IMG/VR virus record: IMGVR_UViG_3300045988_007243
Direction: 5' to 3' (one strand)
DNA length: 64,000 bases
Source: a virus
Lineage: Duplodnaviria; Heunggongvirae; Uroviricota; Caudoviricetes
The notes beneath the pieces were generated by a model. It saw only the letters and a list, made by a program, of their open reading frames with translations, was not told where the DNA came from and ran no database searches. Numbering within the stretch: the first letter of the stretch is position 1; the number at the start of each line of letters is the position of its first letter. The position numbers were made by a program, and so were the translations under genes. This document shows, piece by piece, positions 1 through 46,933 of the stretch.

Positions 1-665
1 AGAAGGATGGTGAGGATATCCCTAGTGCCAATTCTGCAACTTACACAAAACAGTCAGTAGCACCTTCTGACGCTGGTTCATACACTTGTGTTGTATCTGG
101 AGAGGGTGGAACAAGTGTTACCTCAGATGCAGCAACAGTTACTGTGAACGCACTACCTGTGATTACCAAGCAACCTTCTAATCAGACTATTAATGAAGGT
201 GGAAACATCAACTTAGCAGTTACTGCAACAGGTGCGACAGGTTACCAGTGGAAGAAAGATGGCTCTGACATTCCTTCAGCGACAAACGCTACCTATAGCA
301 AGTCTGGTGCTCTGCCAGCAGATGCAGGTTCATACACTTGCGTTGTAACAGGTGCAGGTGGTTCTGTTACTTCTAGCCCTGCAACAGTTACTGTGAATGC
401 ACTTCCGGTAATCACTCAGCAACCAACCAATCAAGAAATCACTGAAGGTGAGACCTTAACACTGAATGTTGTGGCAACAGGTGCGACAGGTTATCAGTGG
501 AAGAAAGGTGAGGAAGTCATCCCAGATGCAACTGCTGCAACTTACACCAAAGAAGGTGCAACCGCTGCTGATGCAGGAAGCTACACCTGTGTAGTGACTG
601 GCGCAGGTGGCTCTGTAACATCTAATGCAGCAACAGTTACAGTTAACCCAGCAGGGGAGGCGTAA
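1..665 (+). CDS. Ig-like domain repeat protein, 5'-truncated at window edge (structural or decoration protein candidate)
   Basis: Open frame runs from nt 3 with no stop to TAA at 663-665; 83-aa units repeat with the conserved GSYTCVV Ig-type motif; track ORF 144..665 is the same frame from an internal GTG. Confidence 0.6.
   Translation, partial: KDGEDIPSANSATYTKQSVAPSDAGSYTCVVSGEGGTSVTSDAATVTVNALPVITKQPSNQTINEGGNINLAVTATGATGYQWKKDGSDIPSATNATYSKSGALPADAGSYTCVVTGAGGSVTSSPATVTVNALPVITQQPTNQEITEGETLTLNVVATGATGYQWKKGEEVIPDATAATYTKEGATAADAGSYTCVVTGAGGSVTSNAATVTVNPAGEA
147..644 (+). repeat. Tandem 249-bp in-frame coding repeat (2 full copies, a third partial copy upstream)
   Basis: NALPVIT...GSYTCVVTGAGGSVTS...ATVTV unit repeated at protein and DNA level. 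Confidence 0.7.
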
Positions 666-1129
666 TGCAACTCTCAAGAAAAGGTTTAGATGCTATTAAG
701 TTCTTCGAAGGTCTGAAGTTAGAGGCTTACGAAGACTCTGCCGGAATCCCAACAATCGGGTATGGGACAATCCGTATTGACGGGAAACCTGTTAAGATGG
801 GTATGAAAATCACGGCTGAACAAGCTGAACAGTATCTTCTCGCAGATGTTGAAAAGTTTGTTGCAGCAGTGAACAAAGCTATCAAGGTTCCAACTTCTCA
901 GAATGAGTTCGATGCACTTGTAAGTGAAACATACAACATCGGTATCACAGCTATGCAGGATTCTACATTTATCAAGCGCCACAATGCTGGTAATAAGGTA
1001 GGTTGTGCAGAAGCTATGCAGTGGTGGAACAAGATTACAGTCAAAGGTAAGAAGGTCACTTCAAACGGCTTGAAAAACAGACGTAGAATGGAAGCTGACA
1101 TTTATCTTGACAGTGTATATCCAAAGTAA
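665..1129 (+). CDS. Endolysin, GH24 T4-type lysozyme
   Basis: N-terminal FFEGLKLEAYEDSAGIPTIGYGT matches the T4 lysozyme catalytic Glu/Asp region ([22 protein letters not shown]); start ATG overlaps upstream stop (TAATG). Confidence 0.85.
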   Translation: MQLSRKGLDAIKFFEGLKLEAYEDSAGIPTIGYGTIRIDGKPVKMGMKITAEQAEQYLLADVEKFVAAVNKAIKVPTSQNEFDALVSETYNIGITAMQDSTFIKRHNAGNKVGCAEAMQWWNKITVKGKKVTSNGLKNRRRMEADIYLDSVYPK

Positions 1130-1138
1130 TATCTTCAT

Positions 1139-1162
1139 AGGCTCCTTCGGGAGCCTTTTTTA
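1139..1162 (+). terminator. Rho-independent terminator
   Basis: AGGCTCCTTCGGGAGCCT hairpin followed by T-run, then RBS AAGGAGAAAACTATG of the next gene. Confidence 0.7.
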
Positions 1163-1180
1163 TTTTCTAAGGAGAAAACT

Positions 1181-1579
1181 ATGAAACTTTGGGCTAGTGA
1201 TTTTGGGACTTTTAAATACACTCGTAATGGTTCGCTTGTACGCATCATTGGAAACAATGTAGTTTCAAGAGGCGACAAGGTGTATACACGGTTTACTGTA
1301 GAGCTTGTTGAACTGTCACCTATTGAGTCTGTGAACAATGGTATGTTCAAGTTTGAGACTTACAATGTCAATGAGCATGGACAATTCAATCCTCTTGGTG
1401 AAAGTGGACTTGATATTATTTCAGAGCACCCATTGACAAAAGAGCAACTTGCAGGTTACTATAAAACTGTTCTTGAAAGGCAGTTAGCAACACATGAACA
1501 AGAAGCTAACTACCATTTACAGCATTGCGAAACTTTAAGAGCAAAAATCGAACAAGCAGAGAGAGGTTTTTATGAATAA
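1181..1579 (+). CDS. Hypothetical protein (early operon)
   Basis: ORF with RBS; 132 aa; no recognisable motif. Confidence 0.5.
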   Translation: MKLWASDFGTFKYTRNGSLVRIIGNNVVSRGDKVYTRFTVELVELSPIESVNNGMFKFETYNVNEHGQFNPLGESGLDIISEHPLTKEQLAGYYKTVLERQLATHEQEANYHLQHCETLRAKIEQAERGFYE

Positions 1580-1967
1580 TAACAGTCATATCCACGTTAA
1601 AGTTGATGTCAGTCGTTACAGCGAAAATGAGGAACTAGACCTGCGAGATGCTCTTCTATTTGAGAAGAATGGCAATCTTCATTTGCATTTTGAAGGTACA
1701 AATACGTACCTCCACAGATGCCGAGATGATGCAGACGGTTGTCCTGTTTTTGCTTGGTATAATTTAGAGTTTCCTCTTTATGCCATCCACTATCCAGATG
1801 GTGGAGAAGACTGGACTACCCAATCAATCTTTGATGAGCTTAACGGTATTCCAGTTGAGCAAGAAGAGCAAGAACCTGTTGAACTCACCTTTACTTTCAT
1901 CAAAGAAGAGAAAGTTGGTGATTTGTCTGTAACTGAAGCAATTCAAGTTTCACAGGTTATTCGTTAA
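1572..1967 (+). CDS. Hypothetical protein
   Basis: ORF overlapping the upstream stop (translational coupling). Confidence 0.5.
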   Translation: MNNNSHIHVKVDVSRYSENEELDLRDALLFEKNGNLHLHFEGTNTYLHRCRDDADGCPVFAWYNLEFPLYAIHYPDGGEDWTTQSIFDELNGIPVEQEEQEPVELTFTFIKEEKVGDLSVTEAIQVSQVIR

Positions 1968-2260
1968 TGAGCAAAGTACAGGTTATCTTCCCTATTTGTG
2001 ACTTCTCACTAGAGCGTGAACTTGACCTGTACGAAGAAATTACTGACGAAATCATCTGGTCTGTTGTAGAAGAGGCTATCAAGAAGCTGTATGGTGGCCT
2101 CTTAAACCCATCAAGTAAAAAGCTCAATACTAAACAAGTAGCTGATACGTACACTTCATACGATGCCTACAACAAACCTTTTGAGAATACCTGCTTTGAC
2201 CTTATGGTAGGTAATAATAAAGTCAACTATTTCTTCGTCAGAGAGTTTAACGATGAGTAA
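1967..2260 (+). CDS. Hypothetical protein
   Basis: Coupled ORF, 97 aa. Confidence 0.45.
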   Translation: MSKVQVIFPICDFSLERELDLYEEITDEIIWSVVEEAIKKLYGGLLNPSSKKLNTKQVADTYTSYDAYNKPFENTCFDLMVGNNKVNYFFVREFNDE

Positions 2261-26793: not shown

Positions 26794-27351
26794 TTATTTT
26801 TTCTTACAATTGTCAAAATGATATCGAGTCATGTTACCAGCACCACCAGTCATACCACAATGAGGGCAAGTTTTCTTTTTCTTTGGCTTTTTTCCGGCTT
26901 CTGACATCTTCTTCCTTGTTTCTATAGACCTTTTACAACCTTTTGATTTTGTATTGCCTATTTGAGATTCTCCTAATCGTCTTCGATGTTCTTCAGTGAA
27001 AACCCTACCTTTATTCACAATAGATAAAGCTTTCGAGTTCAAAGCTCTTACCTTTTCATAGTCTCTGGATGATATTTTCCTATCTAGGCCATCATGAGCT
27101 AACCTGTTCCATGCAAACCATAACTTATGATTGTTTGGATACATCTTAACCAGTAATTTATGAGCTATATAATGCTCTCTAGGTGTAAGCAAAGCAATAT
27201 TATCTCCACTAATTTTATCTCCACCTAGACATACTGGTATGATATGGTGTCTTTCATAACCCTTACCTTGACATTTGTAGTATGTAAGAGGCACACCCCT
27301 TTCAGAATGTGCCTTCTTAATAATTGCATTATATATTAGTTCGTAATTCAT
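26794..27351 (-). CDS. Free-standing HNH homing endonuclease with NUMOD3-like repeats
   Basis: YERHHIIPVCLGGDKISGDNIALLTPREHYIAH HNH core; C-terminal FTEEHRRRLGESQIGNTKSKG repeat and basic zinc-finger tail; sits immediately downstream of nrdD. Confidence 0.65.
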   Translation of the reverse strand: MNYELIYNAIIKKAHSERGVPLTYYKCQGKGYERHHIIPVCLGGDKISGDNIALLTPREHYIAHKLLVKMYPNNHKLWFAWNRLAHDGLDRKISSRDYEKVRALNSKALSIVNKGRVFTEEHRRRLGESQIGNTKSKGCKRSIETRKKMSEAGKKPKKKKTCPHCGMTGGAGNMTRYHFDNCKKK

Positions 27352-27358
27352 TTGTATG

Positions 27359-28306
27359 CTACATAGAAACCCTATCCTTAATTTCTGCCATCTTAGCGTC
27401 ATTCATTCGAGACTGACCTTTAATTTTTGTGAATGACAAGTACCCGCACACCCTGTTAATCACAGAGATATCATGTGAATGGCAAACCTCACATTCTTCA
27501 ACATCAGCCTTTGGTCTGTTACCACAATGTTCACAGATTGCTAAGTCAAAGTTAAGCCCTTGATAAAAACCTTTCAACATCCCTCTTGTAATACAACTTT
27601 TAAGTGCTGGTAAGTTTTCTGGGTTAGCTACCCTTACATACTGGATTCTGCCACCTCTACAGATATGGAAGAATGGCTCTTCTAATTCCTGCTTCTCAAA
27701 TGGTGAGATGTTTGCTGCAACATTCATATGGAAACTGTTTGTAAAGTATTCCTTGTCAGAAACGCCTTTAATAACACCAAACATATCTCTGAACTGTTTT
27801 AGCTGAGTTCCACACAATGACTCTGCTGGAGTGCCATATACTGCATACAGGAAGCCATCTTCATTCTTAAACTCTTCAGTTTTCATGTTAATGTATGCCA
27901 GAACATCGTATGCAAAACTGGAACTTCCAACTTCATGAAGTCGTTTACCTTCAGCAAGAACAGATAACTCATCAAGAGCAGTAACCCCAAAAGAAGCTGT
28001 GAAGGACTTCACAATATCCCAACCAACCTTGTCAGTAGGCTTCTTAGTCCCTTTATACAGACCACCTTGTGTGAATGCAAGAGGGTTAGAACTTGCTGGC
28101 ATATTGGCAATCATTTCGTAACGTTTCTTATGGAAGCTGCGAATCATTTCTAGGTACTTATCAAGCTCTTTCCAGAAATCTAAACCATTCTCTTTAGAAT
28201 ACTGGTAAATCATTGGTAAGTTCAAAGATACAGCACCAATGTTAGCACGACCTACATAAAACTCTTCACCATATTCGTTATGGTATGGTGATAAAAATGC
28301 TCTACA
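27359..28306 (-). CDS. nrdD: Anaerobic ribonucleoside-triphosphate reductase, exon 2
   Basis: In-frame continuation CRAFLSPYHNEYGEEFYVGRANIGAVSLNLP... matches NrdD (E. coli PMGCRSFL...GVVSLNLPRIA); C-terminal CEHCG...CEVCHSHD...RVCGYLS glycyl-radical region. Confidence 0.8.
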   Translation of the reverse strand, partial: CRAFLSPYHNEYGEEFYVGRANIGAVSLNLPMIYQYSKENGLDFWKELDKYLEMIRSFHKKRYEMIANMPASSNPLAFTQGGLYKGTKKPTDKVGWDIVKSFTASFGVTALDELSVLAEGKRLHEVGSSSFAYDVLAYINMKTEEFKNEDGFLYAVYGTPAESLCGTQLKQFRDMFGVIKGVSDKEYFTNSFHMNVAANISPFEKQELEEPFFHICRGGRIQYVRVANPENLPALKSCITRGMLKGFYQGLNFDLAICEHCGNRPKADVEECEVCHSHDISVINRVCGYLSFTKIKGQSRMNDAKMAEIKDRVSM

Positions 28307-29048
28307 CTTGTTGTTCAGGTAAGTTCGCTAAGCTTACCCCGCTTTATTCAAGCTGCTTACTGTCGCCAGTAAGTCCAGACTATATCTTCTACTTATTTCT
28401 AAGTAGCGTACCATTTCGAGTCGCTTGACCCTACACCGCTACATTCATCACGGTTAGTCGTTCGGCATTTAGATGTATTCAAACTCATATTCGAAGTTAT
28501 TATGCTCTTTTACACCCTTCAATATTGAAGAGATGGTCTTGCGATTGTGTCCAAGTATATTGGATAACTCTCGTATTGACTTAGTAACAATAACTTCCTT
28601 TGTCACTTTGTGTGTGGCTTTCACGGCATATGAACGCTTGTGGAACTTGTAGCACCCGTTCTCATAACCTTCTTTAGCATTCTCAGAATGAGTACCCCAT
28701 TCTAAGTTGGATGCGTGGTTATTTAGTTTGTTATCGTCCTTATGTTTTACAATTGGAAGATTATTTGGGTTAGGTACATATTTCTCAGCAACTAACCTGT
28801 GGACATACATGTCACGATTCTTCTTACCGTAAAACCTCACTTTCATATACCCAGTGTTGGATTTCCACTGCGTAAGCTCTACACCATTTTCCCTAAAGAC
28901 TTTTCCATCTTCAGTGACGTGATAGTTTGGCATGTAAGACTCCTATGTTGTATAGTTTCTTACATCGTACATCATTTAGCACAGGATTGTCTACATCTGT
29001 AGAGTTTCCCTGTTTAGGCACGTTTTAGATGAGCTATAGAGCCTGTTA
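28307..29048 (-). other. Group I intron (td-like core) interrupting nrdD
   Basis: Minus-strand sense begins UAACAGGC...CCUAAACAGGGAAACUCUACAGAUGUAGACAAUCCUGUGCUAAAUG and ends ...GUAGGGUCAAGCGACUCGAAAUG...AGAUAUAGUCUGG...GGGGUAAGCUUAGCGAACUUACCUGAACAACAAG, closely matching recalled T4 td intron core elements; exon 1 ends with U, intron ends with G. Confidence 0.75.
28469..28933 (-). CDS. Intron-encoded HNH homing endonuclease
   Basis: MPNYHVTEDGKVF...SNTGYMKVRF...HRLVAEKYVPNP...NLEWGTHSEN pattern typical of HNH_3-family intron endonucleases; lies wholly within the nrdD intron with its own AGGAG RBS. Confidence 0.7.
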   Translation of the reverse strand: MPNYHVTEDGKVFRENGVELTQWKSNTGYMKVRFYGKKNRDMYVHRLVAEKYVPNPNNLPIVKHKDDNKLNNHASNLEWGTHSENAKEGYENGCYKFHKRSYAVKATHKVTKEVIVTKSIRELSNILGHNRKTISSILKGVKEHNNFEYEFEYI

Positions 29049-30245
29049 ACCCATCGGCGAAATAACCTTGCCAGAACGCTCAAAAGCCTCTGCTACAGCA
29101 CCATGACCAGATACACTTAAGAAATCTGGATACATAGCTTTAGAGCAACACTCAATAGCTTTACTGTACAGGTGACCTTGACAGATATTTTCATCATGTC
29201 TCTTCTGGTCATAAATATAAACCAGTTTAGGGAATACAACAGGCTTCTTACTCTTACCTTGTCCATTCATGCGAACATCAAGAATGGTGTTTGCAATCAT
29301 GTATTGCAGTCGGTTGTCTTCATTAGACATATCTGAGTCGAGCAACCCAAATGTTAAAGTTGTGAATGCGAAATCACCACGGCTGCAAGGTACAGTGTTC
29401 AGTTTCATTTCAAGTGACTGAAAACCTTGAGTTAATTCAATCTGTAGCTGCTCCATGACATAATTATGGTAATGTTCTTTAGGAATACCATAAGATGCTG
29501 CTTTCTCAGCATGATAGCGTAGAGACTTCTTAGCATACGGTACAAGCACCTTATCAATCTCTGCTAAAGTAAATCCACCAAATTGCTGTGCAGTTGCTGA
29601 AAGAACTACATCACCAATAACCTGTAAGGCTGACAGCACAGACTTCGGTTCACAGTATTCGATGCCAGACATCTCAAAGCCACCTTTCAGTACTTTACCA
29701 ATGTCAAACAAGCAACAGTTAATGCCGCCAAAAATCAGGTCTCTTAAATCGTGGATATAGATAAACCCTTTTTCAATGGCTTCAAGTTCCTCTGGTGTTA
29801 AATGGTACTGCTTAAAGATTTCTTTAGTCAGGTAACCACGAATAATTGAACCTTTTGTAGAAATTAAACTGCTGTCAAAGTTAGCGTTTTCACGGTCACC
29901 TAAGAAGAGCGTGTCTCTAGTCTTTTGGTAAAGCTCATCCCAATTTTGAGCAACCTCTTTCCGGTAATTTCTGTATGTTGAGTAAGACTCATAAATCTCG
30001 TGATTGACTTCTGCCAAAGCACCCTCAACAATGCTGTGAATATCATTGACTGAGATGAGTAAATTATTCTGCTTAGTGGACTTTACCAGAATCCTCATAA
30101 ATGCTGACTCAAGAGCTTGGGTAACATCTGGTGGGAGTTCTTTATATCCAACCCTGTTAGCTGACTTAGTTACTGCTGCTAAAACTTTTTTGATATCAGG
30201 TTCTTCAAGTGAGCCATTCTTTTTAATAATCTGTACTTTGTTCAT
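29049..30245 (-). CDS. nrdD: Anaerobic ribonucleoside-triphosphate reductase, exon 1
   Basis: N-terminal NrdD region ending ...VISPMG; the track stop codon (29046-29048) is the first triplet of the intron. Confidence 0.8.
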
Positions 30246-45574: not shown

Positions 45575-46376
45575 CAGTGGCGCATGTAAAACGTTGTGAA
45601 TTGCTGGAAGCCTAAGTCTGTAAAGATATGGTAATCAGCAGCGAAGTCTCCGTTAGGACTCCTAAAACAAAGGAGAGAGACAATGGCAGGTTACGAAGAG
45701 AGATTATGCACTGAGTGTGGTACGGAGTTTAAACCATATCAATACAATCAGAAACGGTGCAGAAGTTGTGTATTAAAGTTTGACAGAAGGGCAGAACACA
45801 GGGTTCTTACTAAGAAATGCCCTAGTTGTGAGAAGGTGTTCATGCCGAGAACAGCAAGGCAAGTTTATTGTTCGTCACATTGCGGTGAGAAAGGTAGAGT
45901 TAAGAATTACTACCTAAGAACATATGGATTGGAAAGAGAAGAGGTTGAGTCTCTACTCCGTGACTGTGATTACAAATGTCAAATTTGTGGCGGCGAAGGT
46001 TTTATCATGAATGGTTCACGACACAAGGCTAAACTTGTTGTTGACCATGACCATAAAACCGGAAAGGTAAGAGGTATGTTATGCCACAATTGCAACAGAG
46101 CTTTGGGGTTGCTTGCAGATAGTGTTGATAACATGCAAAGAGCGATTGACTATCTAAGCAAATGATATAACTATAGAGATTCCTAACAGAGAAACGTTCA
46201 GAGACTATCGAAAAGCATACTTAACGTATGAACTGAGTAGAGTAGGGTGGTAAGCTAATGACCATCCCCAAGTGCAACGGTAGCATCACTGCTACGTGAT
46301 ATAGTCCGACACTCCGTAGAAATGCGGAGAAGTTCATAAGAGAACTGGTACACCTTGCGAGTGTATTGACCAGATG
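45575..46376 (+). other. Intron (group I-like) interrupting the DNA polymerase gene in motif B
   Basis: Frame breaks after IYA and resumes as LFGAGDEK; 3' region has R-like GUUCAGAGACUA and S-like GAUAUAGUCCGAC elements; exon 1 ends in U, intron ends in G; boundaries approximate (two alternative 5' sites six nt apart). Confidence 0.6.
45683..46165 (+). CDS. Intron-encoded HNH endonuclease
   Basis: Zinc-ribbon N-terminus (CTECG...CRSC...CPSC...CSSHC) and HNH core LVVDHDHKTGKVRGMLCHNCNRALG. Confidence 0.7.
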   Translation: MAGYEERLCTECGTEFKPYQYNQKRCRSCVLKFDRRAEHRVLTKKCPSCEKVFMPRTARQVYCSSHCGEKGRVKNYYLRTYGLEREEVESLLRDCDYKCQICGGEGFIMNGSRHKAKLVVDHDHKTGKVRGMLCHNCNRALGLLADSVDNMQRAIDYLSK

Positions 46377-46933
46377 TATTGTTCGGGGCTGGCGATGAGA
46401 AATTTGCTAAGACGATTAAAGCATCTACAACTGAGGAAGGTGCTTTAACTAAGCAAACATACTTTGTACGTCTCCCTAAAATTAAGAAGTTGATAGATAA
46501 TTTAGAAGCAGACTTCAAAGCCACTAAGAAGGCTCTTGAAGAGGTATTTGGTAAGACTGCCGCAATCTCTAAAGGGGGGTTTGTAAAGGTTGCTGGAGCT
46601 TGGTTGTGGTGTAAATCTCCACATAAGTTATTGAATTATTTGCTTATGGGTTCGGAAAGTCAGGTTCAGAATGAAGCCATCAACCTCGCTTGTAGAAGAA
46701 CTTGTGAAGAGGGTCTTACAAAGTTGAATGGTCGAAAACCAGCTATTGGTGCTAGATTGCTTTTAGCATATCACGATGAGAATAGTTGGGAGTGTCCAGA
46801 AGACATGACGCAGGATGTTAAAGCAGTAATTGACTGGATGTATGGTCAAGCGTCAAGAAATTTAGGGCTTAAGGAGGAAACGCTTGTAACTGGTACTGGT
46901 AAAGTTGGTAAAAATTGGCTTGAAGTACACTGA
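46377..46933 (+). CDS. DNA polymerase, family A T7-like, exon 2 (C-terminal palm/fingers)
   Basis: LFGAGDEKFAKTI..., SPHKLLNYLL, YHDENSWEC, GTGKVGKNWLEVH align with the T7 gp5 C-terminus (YGAGDEKIG, SPHAALNTLL, VHDEIQVGC, EGKMGPNWAICH). Confidence 0.75.

Follow-up and report, generated by a model that had tools for sequence, protein, structure and literature searches.

In the window, by which we mean the whole stretch of 64,000 nucleotides of phage DNA that was analysed, the nrdD gene on the minus strand is divided in two by 742 nucleotides that carry an open reading frame (ORF) of their own. Such a locus raises the question of whether the two pieces are expressed as one protein after removal of the intervening sequence from the RNA, as two polypeptides, or no longer as a functional enzyme at all, and the further question of where the intervening sequence and the gene inside it come from. 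The original prediction was a group I intron with a core like that of the T4 td intron and an endonuclease gene of the HNH type.

A passage in Moreno Switt et al. (PMC3728262) describes homing endonuclease genes that lie between, or have been inserted into, conserved genes of Felix O1-like phages, and Bardina et al. (PMC4837284), in a passage that cites this work, have the nrdD of these phages split by a homing endonuclease gene. According to an excerpt of the paper on the BASEL collection (PMC8594841), intron boundaries were annotated there via comparative genomics, and in GenBank record MZ501086 from this collection NrdD is given as a joined coding sequence in two pieces. A passage of the SPJ41 paper (PMC9951933) counts 'two introns' among the three ncRNAs of that genome. 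A literature search for splicing, RNA or cleavage experiments on an nrdD intron of the window's type found none.

The Split nrdD Gene

Sequence matches with 98-99% identity place the region among the Felix O1-like phages (genus Felixounavirus), and its minus-strand neighbourhood is a nrdB–glutaredoxin–nrdD–nrdG cluster. Exon 1 of nrdD (29049..30245, minus strand), identified from the ORF list and Pfam, has 399 codons, which encode an ATP-cone and the N-terminal half of NrdD, and ends with ...VISPMG. Exon 2 (27359..28306, minus strand), identified by Pfam, has 315 codons, starts with CRAFLSPYH and contains the catalytic Cys400 and the glycyl-radical domain. Positions 1-250 of the Pfam NRDD profile are matched in exon 1 and positions 264-560 in exon 2, with the Pfam ATP-cone matched in the former and Pfam Gly_radical in the latter. 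From this division of a single profile follows that each ORF encodes one half of the same protein. The borders of the split are 29049|29048 and 28307|28306, and the insert sits between the codons for Gly399 and Cys400.

Intronless alleles (wV8, LF82P2 and radambza) read ...ATGGGT|TGC... across this point, and the exon join is thereby confirmed. The predicted join of the two minus-strand pieces, VISPMG|CRAFLSPYH, agrees both with these alleles and with the Pfam halves, and the predicted insert of 742 nucleotides from 28307 to 29048, following a U and ending with G, turned out to be exact to the base. The predicted ligated junction is ...CCGAUGGGU|UGUAGAGCA..., i.e., ...ATGGGT|TGTAGAG..., and the spliced product would be a NrdD of 714 amino acids in which ...SPMG-CRAFL... 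is restored. The Cys of PMGC aligns with residue 290 of T4 NrdD, which we take to be the thiyl-radical cysteine.

Consider, as an alternative, that an endonuclease cassette has split nrdD and that two polypeptides assemble without any splicing. A passage on the NrdA of Aeromonas phage Aeh1, which is split by mobE (PMC3653736), provides a precedent for such a gene in pieces; most GenBank records annotate two NrdD coding sequences and an endonuclease, and that the literature search found no splicing experiment also counts in its favour. Exon 1 runs into a UAA stop codon formed by the first three bases of the intron, and the first in-frame start codon of exon 2 is a TTG at 28225, 27 codons past the Cys. 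A separate exon 2 product would lack Cys400, because its first start codon comes only after these 27 codons, and this speaks against two assembling polypeptides. An intein is ruled out, the insert beginning with an in-frame stop codon and its ORF lying in an RNA loop.

Group I Identity and Anatomy of the Intron

When the whole window was scanned with Rfam at gathering thresholds, no match was obtained, and the intron was found in E-value mode. The model Intron_gpI (RF00028) then scores 33.1 bits for 28356-28536 and, in a second match at 28930-29013, 15.6 bits; the better match has an E-value of 1.8e-6 when the region alone is searched and of 1.2e-4 for the window as a whole. The curated gathering cutoff is 50 bits, and the window copy stays below it because an ORF of 465 nucleotides in P6a lowers its score. 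Among the proven T4 introns, those with an ORF in P6 score 40.3 bits (td) and 35.7 bits (nrdB), and the nrdD (sunY) intron, with its ORF outside the core, scores 105.3 bits. The EC6 allele, an intron of 316 nucleotides from which the ORF is naturally deleted, scores 53.6 bits, above the cutoff.

The fold was derived from an alignment of the window intron, trimmed of its ORF, with the introns of T4 td, T4 nrdD and JB75 nrdD, intron 2 of Vibrio phage F98 and intron 2 of phita32. The RNAalifold consensus recovers P1, P3, P4, P5, P6/P6a, P7.1, P7.2, P8, P9, P9.1 and P9.2, and P7, as part of the P3/P7 pseudoknot, was added to the consensus before pairs were counted. This gives 71 pairs including P7, for which 96.9% of the cells are paired, and in 35 of the 71 both sides have changed among the six introns. 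When the partners are slid by one to three columns, pairing drops to 35-40%, and the observed values were reached in none of 500 shuffles. P7 is invariant across the six introns and is uninformative for covariation. All core helices are intact in the window intron, and this comparative evidence confirms the minus-strand insert in nrdD as a group I intron of T-even type.

The intron (28307..29048, minus strand; 742 nucleotides, placed from Rfam, covariation and the helix map as T-even/IA2 type) begins with UAACAGGC directly after U29049, and its terminal G is at 28307. The internal guide sequence (29029..29041, minus strand) consists of the P10 guide CUCUAUA (29041..29035) followed by the 3' strand of P1, GCUCAU (29034..29029). 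P1, AUGGGU/GCUCAU, has 6 bp with a U·G at the 5' splice site, and P10, CUCUAUA/UGUAGAG, pairs with the first bases of exon 2 over 7 bp. The two P10 strands of F98 are GAUUGGCA/UGCCGAUC: both differ from those in the window while their complementarity is kept, which means that P10 covaries. The exon 2 versions of the intronless alleles weaken P10.

The 5' core (28979..29022, minus strand), as given by the RNAalifold consensus and the pair counts, contains the 5' strand of P3, P4, P5, P4' and the 5' strand of P6, and its helices 2-5 are 100% paired. In the 3' core (28307..28477, minus strand), where the helix map and the pair counts of helices 6-14 apply, P6a', P6', P7, P7.1, P7.2, P3', P8, P7', P9, P9.1, P9.2 and the terminal G follow each other. 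The 3' half of 163 nucleotides (28469..28307) is 100% identical to the ORF-less intron of EC6. P7.1 (28454..28435) and P7.2 (28431..28418) are located between P7 and P3'; these elements (helices 8-10) are paired in all six relatives, with compensatory changes, and from their presence follows that the intron belongs to subgroup IA2, the T-even type.

The anatomy also bears on the possibility of a gene in pieces, against which it sets a complete, covarying group I core on the flanks of the ORF, P1 and P10 that fit the exon ends exactly, and alleles that have lost the ORF and retained the whole core. Two polypeptides from an unspliced nrdD are, in our judgement, extremely improbable, and splicing is the reading on which the following is based.

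The Intron-Encoded Endonuclease

The ORF in the P6a loop (28469..28933, minus strand) encodes 154 amino acids and is assigned by Pfam, PHROG and PDB comparisons to the HNH homing endonucleases of the I-HmuI family. It matches Pfam HNH_3 with E=1.3e-10 and PHROG 59 with E=1.3e-42, and its residues 3-152 align with residues 12-169 of I-HmuI (PDB 1U3E) with E=3.7e-9. The HNH_3 match and the full-length alignment to I-HmuI bear out the prediction that the protein is of the HNH and not of the GIY-YIG type. I-HmuI, the HNH nickase encoded by the DNA polymerase intron of Bacillus phage SPO1 and a relative of I-BasI and I-TwoI, is likewise encoded by a phage group I intron, and the two proteins have the same order of domains: an N-terminal domain, the HNH motif and a C-terminal helix-turn-helix. 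In the window protein the C-terminus is helix-turn-helix-like, with weak NUMOD1/HTH matches. The two differ in target gene and host intron, and their alignment is too diverged for a meaningful identity figure.

The F98 and phita32 homologues retain all three residues of the H-N-N motif (His64, Asn76 and Asn85), the first and last of which fall on the His and the final Asn of this motif in I-HmuI. At the position of Asp74 in I-HmuI, presumably the acidic metal ligand before the catalytic His, the window protein has Lys63 (Lys in phita32 and Cys in F98), with Asp66 and Asp67 close behind. From the replacement of Asp74 by Lys63 follows that catalytic competence is not guaranteed.

At the start of the gene, ViennaRNA predicts a P6a-loop hairpin, AUGUAAGA/UCUUACAU (28932..28965, minus strand), with a free energy of -11.1 kcal/mol. 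It encloses the GGAG ribosome-binding site, 8 nucleotides upstream of the endonuclease AUG, and the first two bases of this start codon. By analogy with T4 I-TevI, whose translation is known to be restrained in a similar way, the hairpin may delay synthesis of the endonuclease.

Relation to the T4 Introns

The original prediction took the core to be td-like on account of stretches nearly identical to the T4 td intron. These stretches are indeed present, with 1, 1, 0 and 0 mismatches to td, but they are common to all T4 introns; GGGUCAAGCGACUCGAAA, for instance, is identical in the T4 nrdB intron. Alignment to the td, nrdB and nrdD introns, evaluated by half-intron and by helix, shows a similarity that is real and that is not specific for td. 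The 5' half of the window intron is 70% identical to T4 td, 78% to T4 nrdD and 60% to T4 nrdB, and the 3' half is 71% identical to td, 72.5% to nrdD and 63.5% to nrdB. Over the whole aligned core, in an alignment without T4 nrdB, the identity is 59% to T4 td, 65% to T4 nrdD, 65% to F98 and 61% to phita32. What stands of the td-like core is that two parts of it are as close or closer to td than to the nrdD introns: P4-P5 is 78% identical to td and to JB75 alike, and from P9.2 to the end td is closest, with 79% identity as against 59% for T4 nrdD.

Other parts have other affinities. The region of P1, J1-3 and P3 resembles nrdD introns, and the window intron has no P2, where td has an insertion of 13 columns in the alignment. 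The P7.1 hairpin, with its GAUGAAUGUA loop, is of nrdD type and 100% identical to the JB75 nrdD intron and to phita32, and a stretch of 38 nucleotides at P7.1 is 97% identical to T4-like nrdD introns. A core specifically of td lineage is rejected, in view of the lower identity to td than to T4 nrdD and F98 and the absence of P2. As judged from its sequence, the intron core is a mosaic, and the combination of a P7.1 like that of T4-like nrdD introns at another site with a td-like 3' end suggests that helices may have been exchanged between introns.

The T4 nrdD (sunY) and JB75 introns share with the window intron the host gene, the intron family, the absence of P2 and the layout of the P1 loop. 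The ORF of the T4 nrdD intron is I-TevII and is placed in the 3' P9.1 region, whereas that of the window is an HNH gene in the P6a loop, a location in which the window intron is like td and nrdB and unlike sunY. With T4 td it has in common the IA2 type of core, in which P4-P5, P7 and P9.2 are nearly the same, and an ORF in the P6 loop, the 3' end of which abuts the P6'/J6-7 core sequence in both cases. The td intron differs by its P2 hairpin, its short P7.1 and its host gene, which is that for thymidylate synthase, and its endonuclease I-TevI, a GIY-YIG enzyme, is listed under a different phage protein family (phrog_314).

Insertion Site and Same-Site Introns

The T4 nrdD intron interrupts ...AYE|YEV..., at about residue 283 of the present protein. 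The window site is about 116 codons downstream of this, and identity of the two sites is rejected.

In phita32, a coliphage of 139 kb with no genus in its record, and in the Vibrio phages F98, F90, F101 and 184E37.1, there is an intron at the identical MG|CR site with the same P1, AUGGGU/GCUCAU. These introns have HNH homologues in P6a, with a protein identity of 48-50% for phita32 and 40-41% for the F98 type, and their P7.1 segments are 96-100% identical to that of the window. They differ from the window intron in P6a, P8, P9 and the peripheral helices, with 61-65% identity in the core, and the nrdD genes of phita32 and the Vibrio phages have a second, upstream intron besides the one at MG|CR. 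The same site, the same P1 and the homologous HNH gene in phita32 and F98 argue for an old unit and not a recent shuffle, and by this comparison the association of the intron with its HNH gene appears to be of long standing. The shuffling of cores and endonucleases that had been proposed for this locus holds in a general and known sense only: among related cores, both the endonuclease and the loop in which it is encoded vary.

The same data decide on the idea that an intron of td lineage moved ectopically into nrdD and had its GIY-YIG gene swapped for an HNH gene. The four motifs quoted for td match it best, the segment from P9.2 to the end is closer to td than to T4 nrdD, and the ORF is in the P6 loop as in td, all of which would be expected from such a history. 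The identity over the whole core, the missing P2 and the nrdD-type P7.1, shared in full with JB75 and phita32, are evidence against it, and the homologous units of intron and HNH gene at MG|CR in phita32 and F98 mean that both pairing and site are old. A td origin is accordingly unlikely, and an old MG|CR intron with its own HNH gene is preferred.

Some further features of the same-site introns were observed. In F98 and phita32 the endonuclease ORF continues across J6/7 and includes part of the P7 strand, so that it ends with ...EMPND and has its stop codon within GACUAA. The window ORF is closed five codons sooner by an in-frame UAA (28455..28471, minus strand), behind which the MPND codons are still present. 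The nrdD genes of phita32 (approximately 1275..2122 of its locus) and F98 (approximately 207..1365) are in three pieces. Their extra upstream inserts, which bear ORFs, follow ...TSVNG in phita32 and ...LQFG in F98, neither of which is the T4 site, and the upstream insert of phita32 has a weak Rfam match, of 28.8 bits, in favour of a group I intron.

Allele States, Selection, and Flanking Exon Sequence

About 244 phage records hold this nrdD, and its MG|CR site in Felixounavirus has three allele states: no intron, an intron with the ORF, and an intron without it. The 3' half of the intron is found at 90% identity or more in about 115 of the 244 records, 61 of which have the ORF; the number of ORF-deleted alleles, about 54, is an approximate one obtained by subtraction (115 - 61). 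An identical in-frame ORF deletion occurs in at least 26 of the records listed. A junction query of 82 nucleotides returned only 66 records, a count that reflects the long exact words required by megablast. The remaining records, including wV8, are intronless, as is the nrdD of Felix O1 (PMC3185647).

The ORF-less intron of 316 nucleotides is present in EC6 (801..1116 of its locus), REP5-12, D1-2, BPSELC-1, P219, SPJ41 and others. In EC6 the deletion covers intron nucleotides 122-547, so that 426 nucleotides or 142 codons are lost in frame, and it leaves MPNNFEYEFEYI, with a remnant of 12 codons; the ribozyme core differs from that of the window at 2 positions only.

The spliced nrdD sequences of the window and of JohannRWettstein differ at 135 nucleotides and in 125 codons, with 18 of 714 residues changed and no stops. 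Their endonuclease ORFs differ by 40 nucleotides but 8 amino acids, and their ribozyme cores at 7 of 277 nucleotides. These counts indicate that the spliced nrdD frame and the endonuclease ORF are under purifying selection and that the ribozyme is likewise under constraint. The divergence of the intron, 6.3%, is the same as that of the exons, and this equality gives no indication that the intron passed between these two phages very recently.

Such numbers are difficult to reconcile with a decayed, non-splicing relic in an nrdD pseudogene that is tolerated thanks to the aerobic NrdAB. The window copy does fall under the Rfam cutoff, and nrdD is dispensable in aerobic growth in the laboratory, which makes a loss of function conceivable. 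Against this, both exons are open and their codon changes have the excess of silent ones that strong purifying selection leaves, the core has changed at far fewer positions than the exons' 6.3%, and every core helix is intact. A relic is thus very improbable, and a splicing-competent intron remains the reading adopted here.

The presence of the intron also has a correlate in the exon downstream of it. A recoded tract of about 55 nucleotides in exon 2 (28250..28306, minus strand) is a candidate for a co-conversion tract or an endonuclease target that accompanies the intron. The first 60 nucleotides of exon 2 have 11-14 differences, mostly synonymous, to three intronless alleles, as against 0-3 in the flanking bins of 60 nucleotides, and intron-bearing alleles differ from the window by only 1 nucleotide in the tract. 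To go by its sequence pattern, such recoding would be the expected mark of co-conversion, of target-site divergence, or of both. Presence or absence at one precise site among close relatives, together with a tract of flanking markers, is the pattern by which an intron is recognised as mobile, and it is the pattern seen at this locus.

Four records named after Campylobacter, MG065664 (A132), MG065668 (A126), MG065662 (A142) and MG065655 (C2), contain Felixounavirus nrdD at 97% or related intron sequences. The A142 record is flagged UNVERIFIED and classed as Vequintavirus. These records are probably mislabelled or contaminant assemblies.

Other Introns and Endonuclease Genes

A second group I intron of the window, identified by Rfam, interrupts its gene for a family-A DNA polymerase (45575..46376, plus strand); it has P1 AUGCGU/GCGCAU and terminal G46376. 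Exon 1 of the polymerase ends with ...AKNGIYA and has T45574 as its last base, and position 46377 is the first of exon 2 (LLFGAGDEKFAK). The ORF in this intron (45683..46165, plus strand; 160 amino acids) belongs to the endonuclease-VII family (Pfam E=1.1e-19). The Rfam score is 24.8 bits for the window copy and 61.7 bits for the ORF-less allele of REP8, above the cutoff of 50. Coverage of at least 80% of the query, which corresponds to an intron with the ORF, is found for 41 matching records, and other records are ORF-less.

Immediately after nrdD comes a gene for a free-standing HNH/NUMOD3 homing endonuclease of 202 amino acids (26794..27402, minus strand; PHROG 655, E=3.2e-58), which shares 44 nucleotides with the end of nrdD. 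In T4, the ORFs of the nrdA-nrdB and nrdD-nrdG intervals belong to PHROG 655 as well. The gene is absent from this position in JohannRWettstein and UAB_Phi87, and radambza has a putative endonuclease there.

Introns related to that of nrdD are found in other genes of unrelated phages, where the 3' half matches, in part or for the most part, at 71-79% identity. The match is between two terminase coding sequences in Aeromonas phage 4L372D, in the gene for the large terminase subunit in the rV5-like coliphage V5, and, in phi92, in a gene whose annotation calls it a spliced variant; Pseudomonas jumbo phages of about 280 kb have a match as well.

Discussion

The element in Felixounavirus nrdD is, with high probability, a group I intron of the T-even type (IA2) that splices itself and is mobile. 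From its anatomy, the covarying fold, the homology to the proven T4 introns, the allele polymorphism and the purifying selection we infer that it is spliced, and the following sequence of events is proposed. After transcription the ribozyme would fold, and in P1, with its U·G pair at the splice site, the exon 1 sequence AUGGGU would be paired to GCUCAU. An external guanosine would attack the 5' splice site, the guide CUCUAUA would hold UGUAGAG of exon 2 in P10, and the exons would be ligated after the terminal G, to give ...SPMG-CRAFL... in a predicted NrdD of 714 amino acids. The HNH gene in the P6a loop would be read from its own ribosome-binding site within the hairpin. Its product most likely nicks or cuts the intronless nrdD of co-infecting phages near the insertion site. 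Repair from the intron-bearing genome would then copy the intron together with about 55 nucleotides of the downstream exon, which is homing with co-conversion.

The element is an ordinary member of a well-known class, from a gene whose split has been published and which is spliced in at least one related annotation. The main value of the result is for annotation: the locus should be given as one spliced NrdD of 714 amino acids, instead of two fragment coding sequences and an endonuclease. Homing elements in genes for nucleotide metabolism are known, as a rule, to have the best conserved and functionally critical codons as their targets, and the position of the present intron, just before the codon for the thiyl-radical Cys, fits this pattern. 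No new principle is involved, and the co-existing alleles and the exon tract linked to the intron could be a handy model of homing dynamics.

More tentatively, and with somewhat less than even confidence, we suggest that the tract of about 55 nucleotides is the recognition and immunity determinant of a nickase of the I-HmuI type, and that introns from different sites and from unrelated phage families swap helices by recombination. If this is true, the tract and the three allele states within one genus would make up a natural system for the study of a complete homing cycle in lytic phages.
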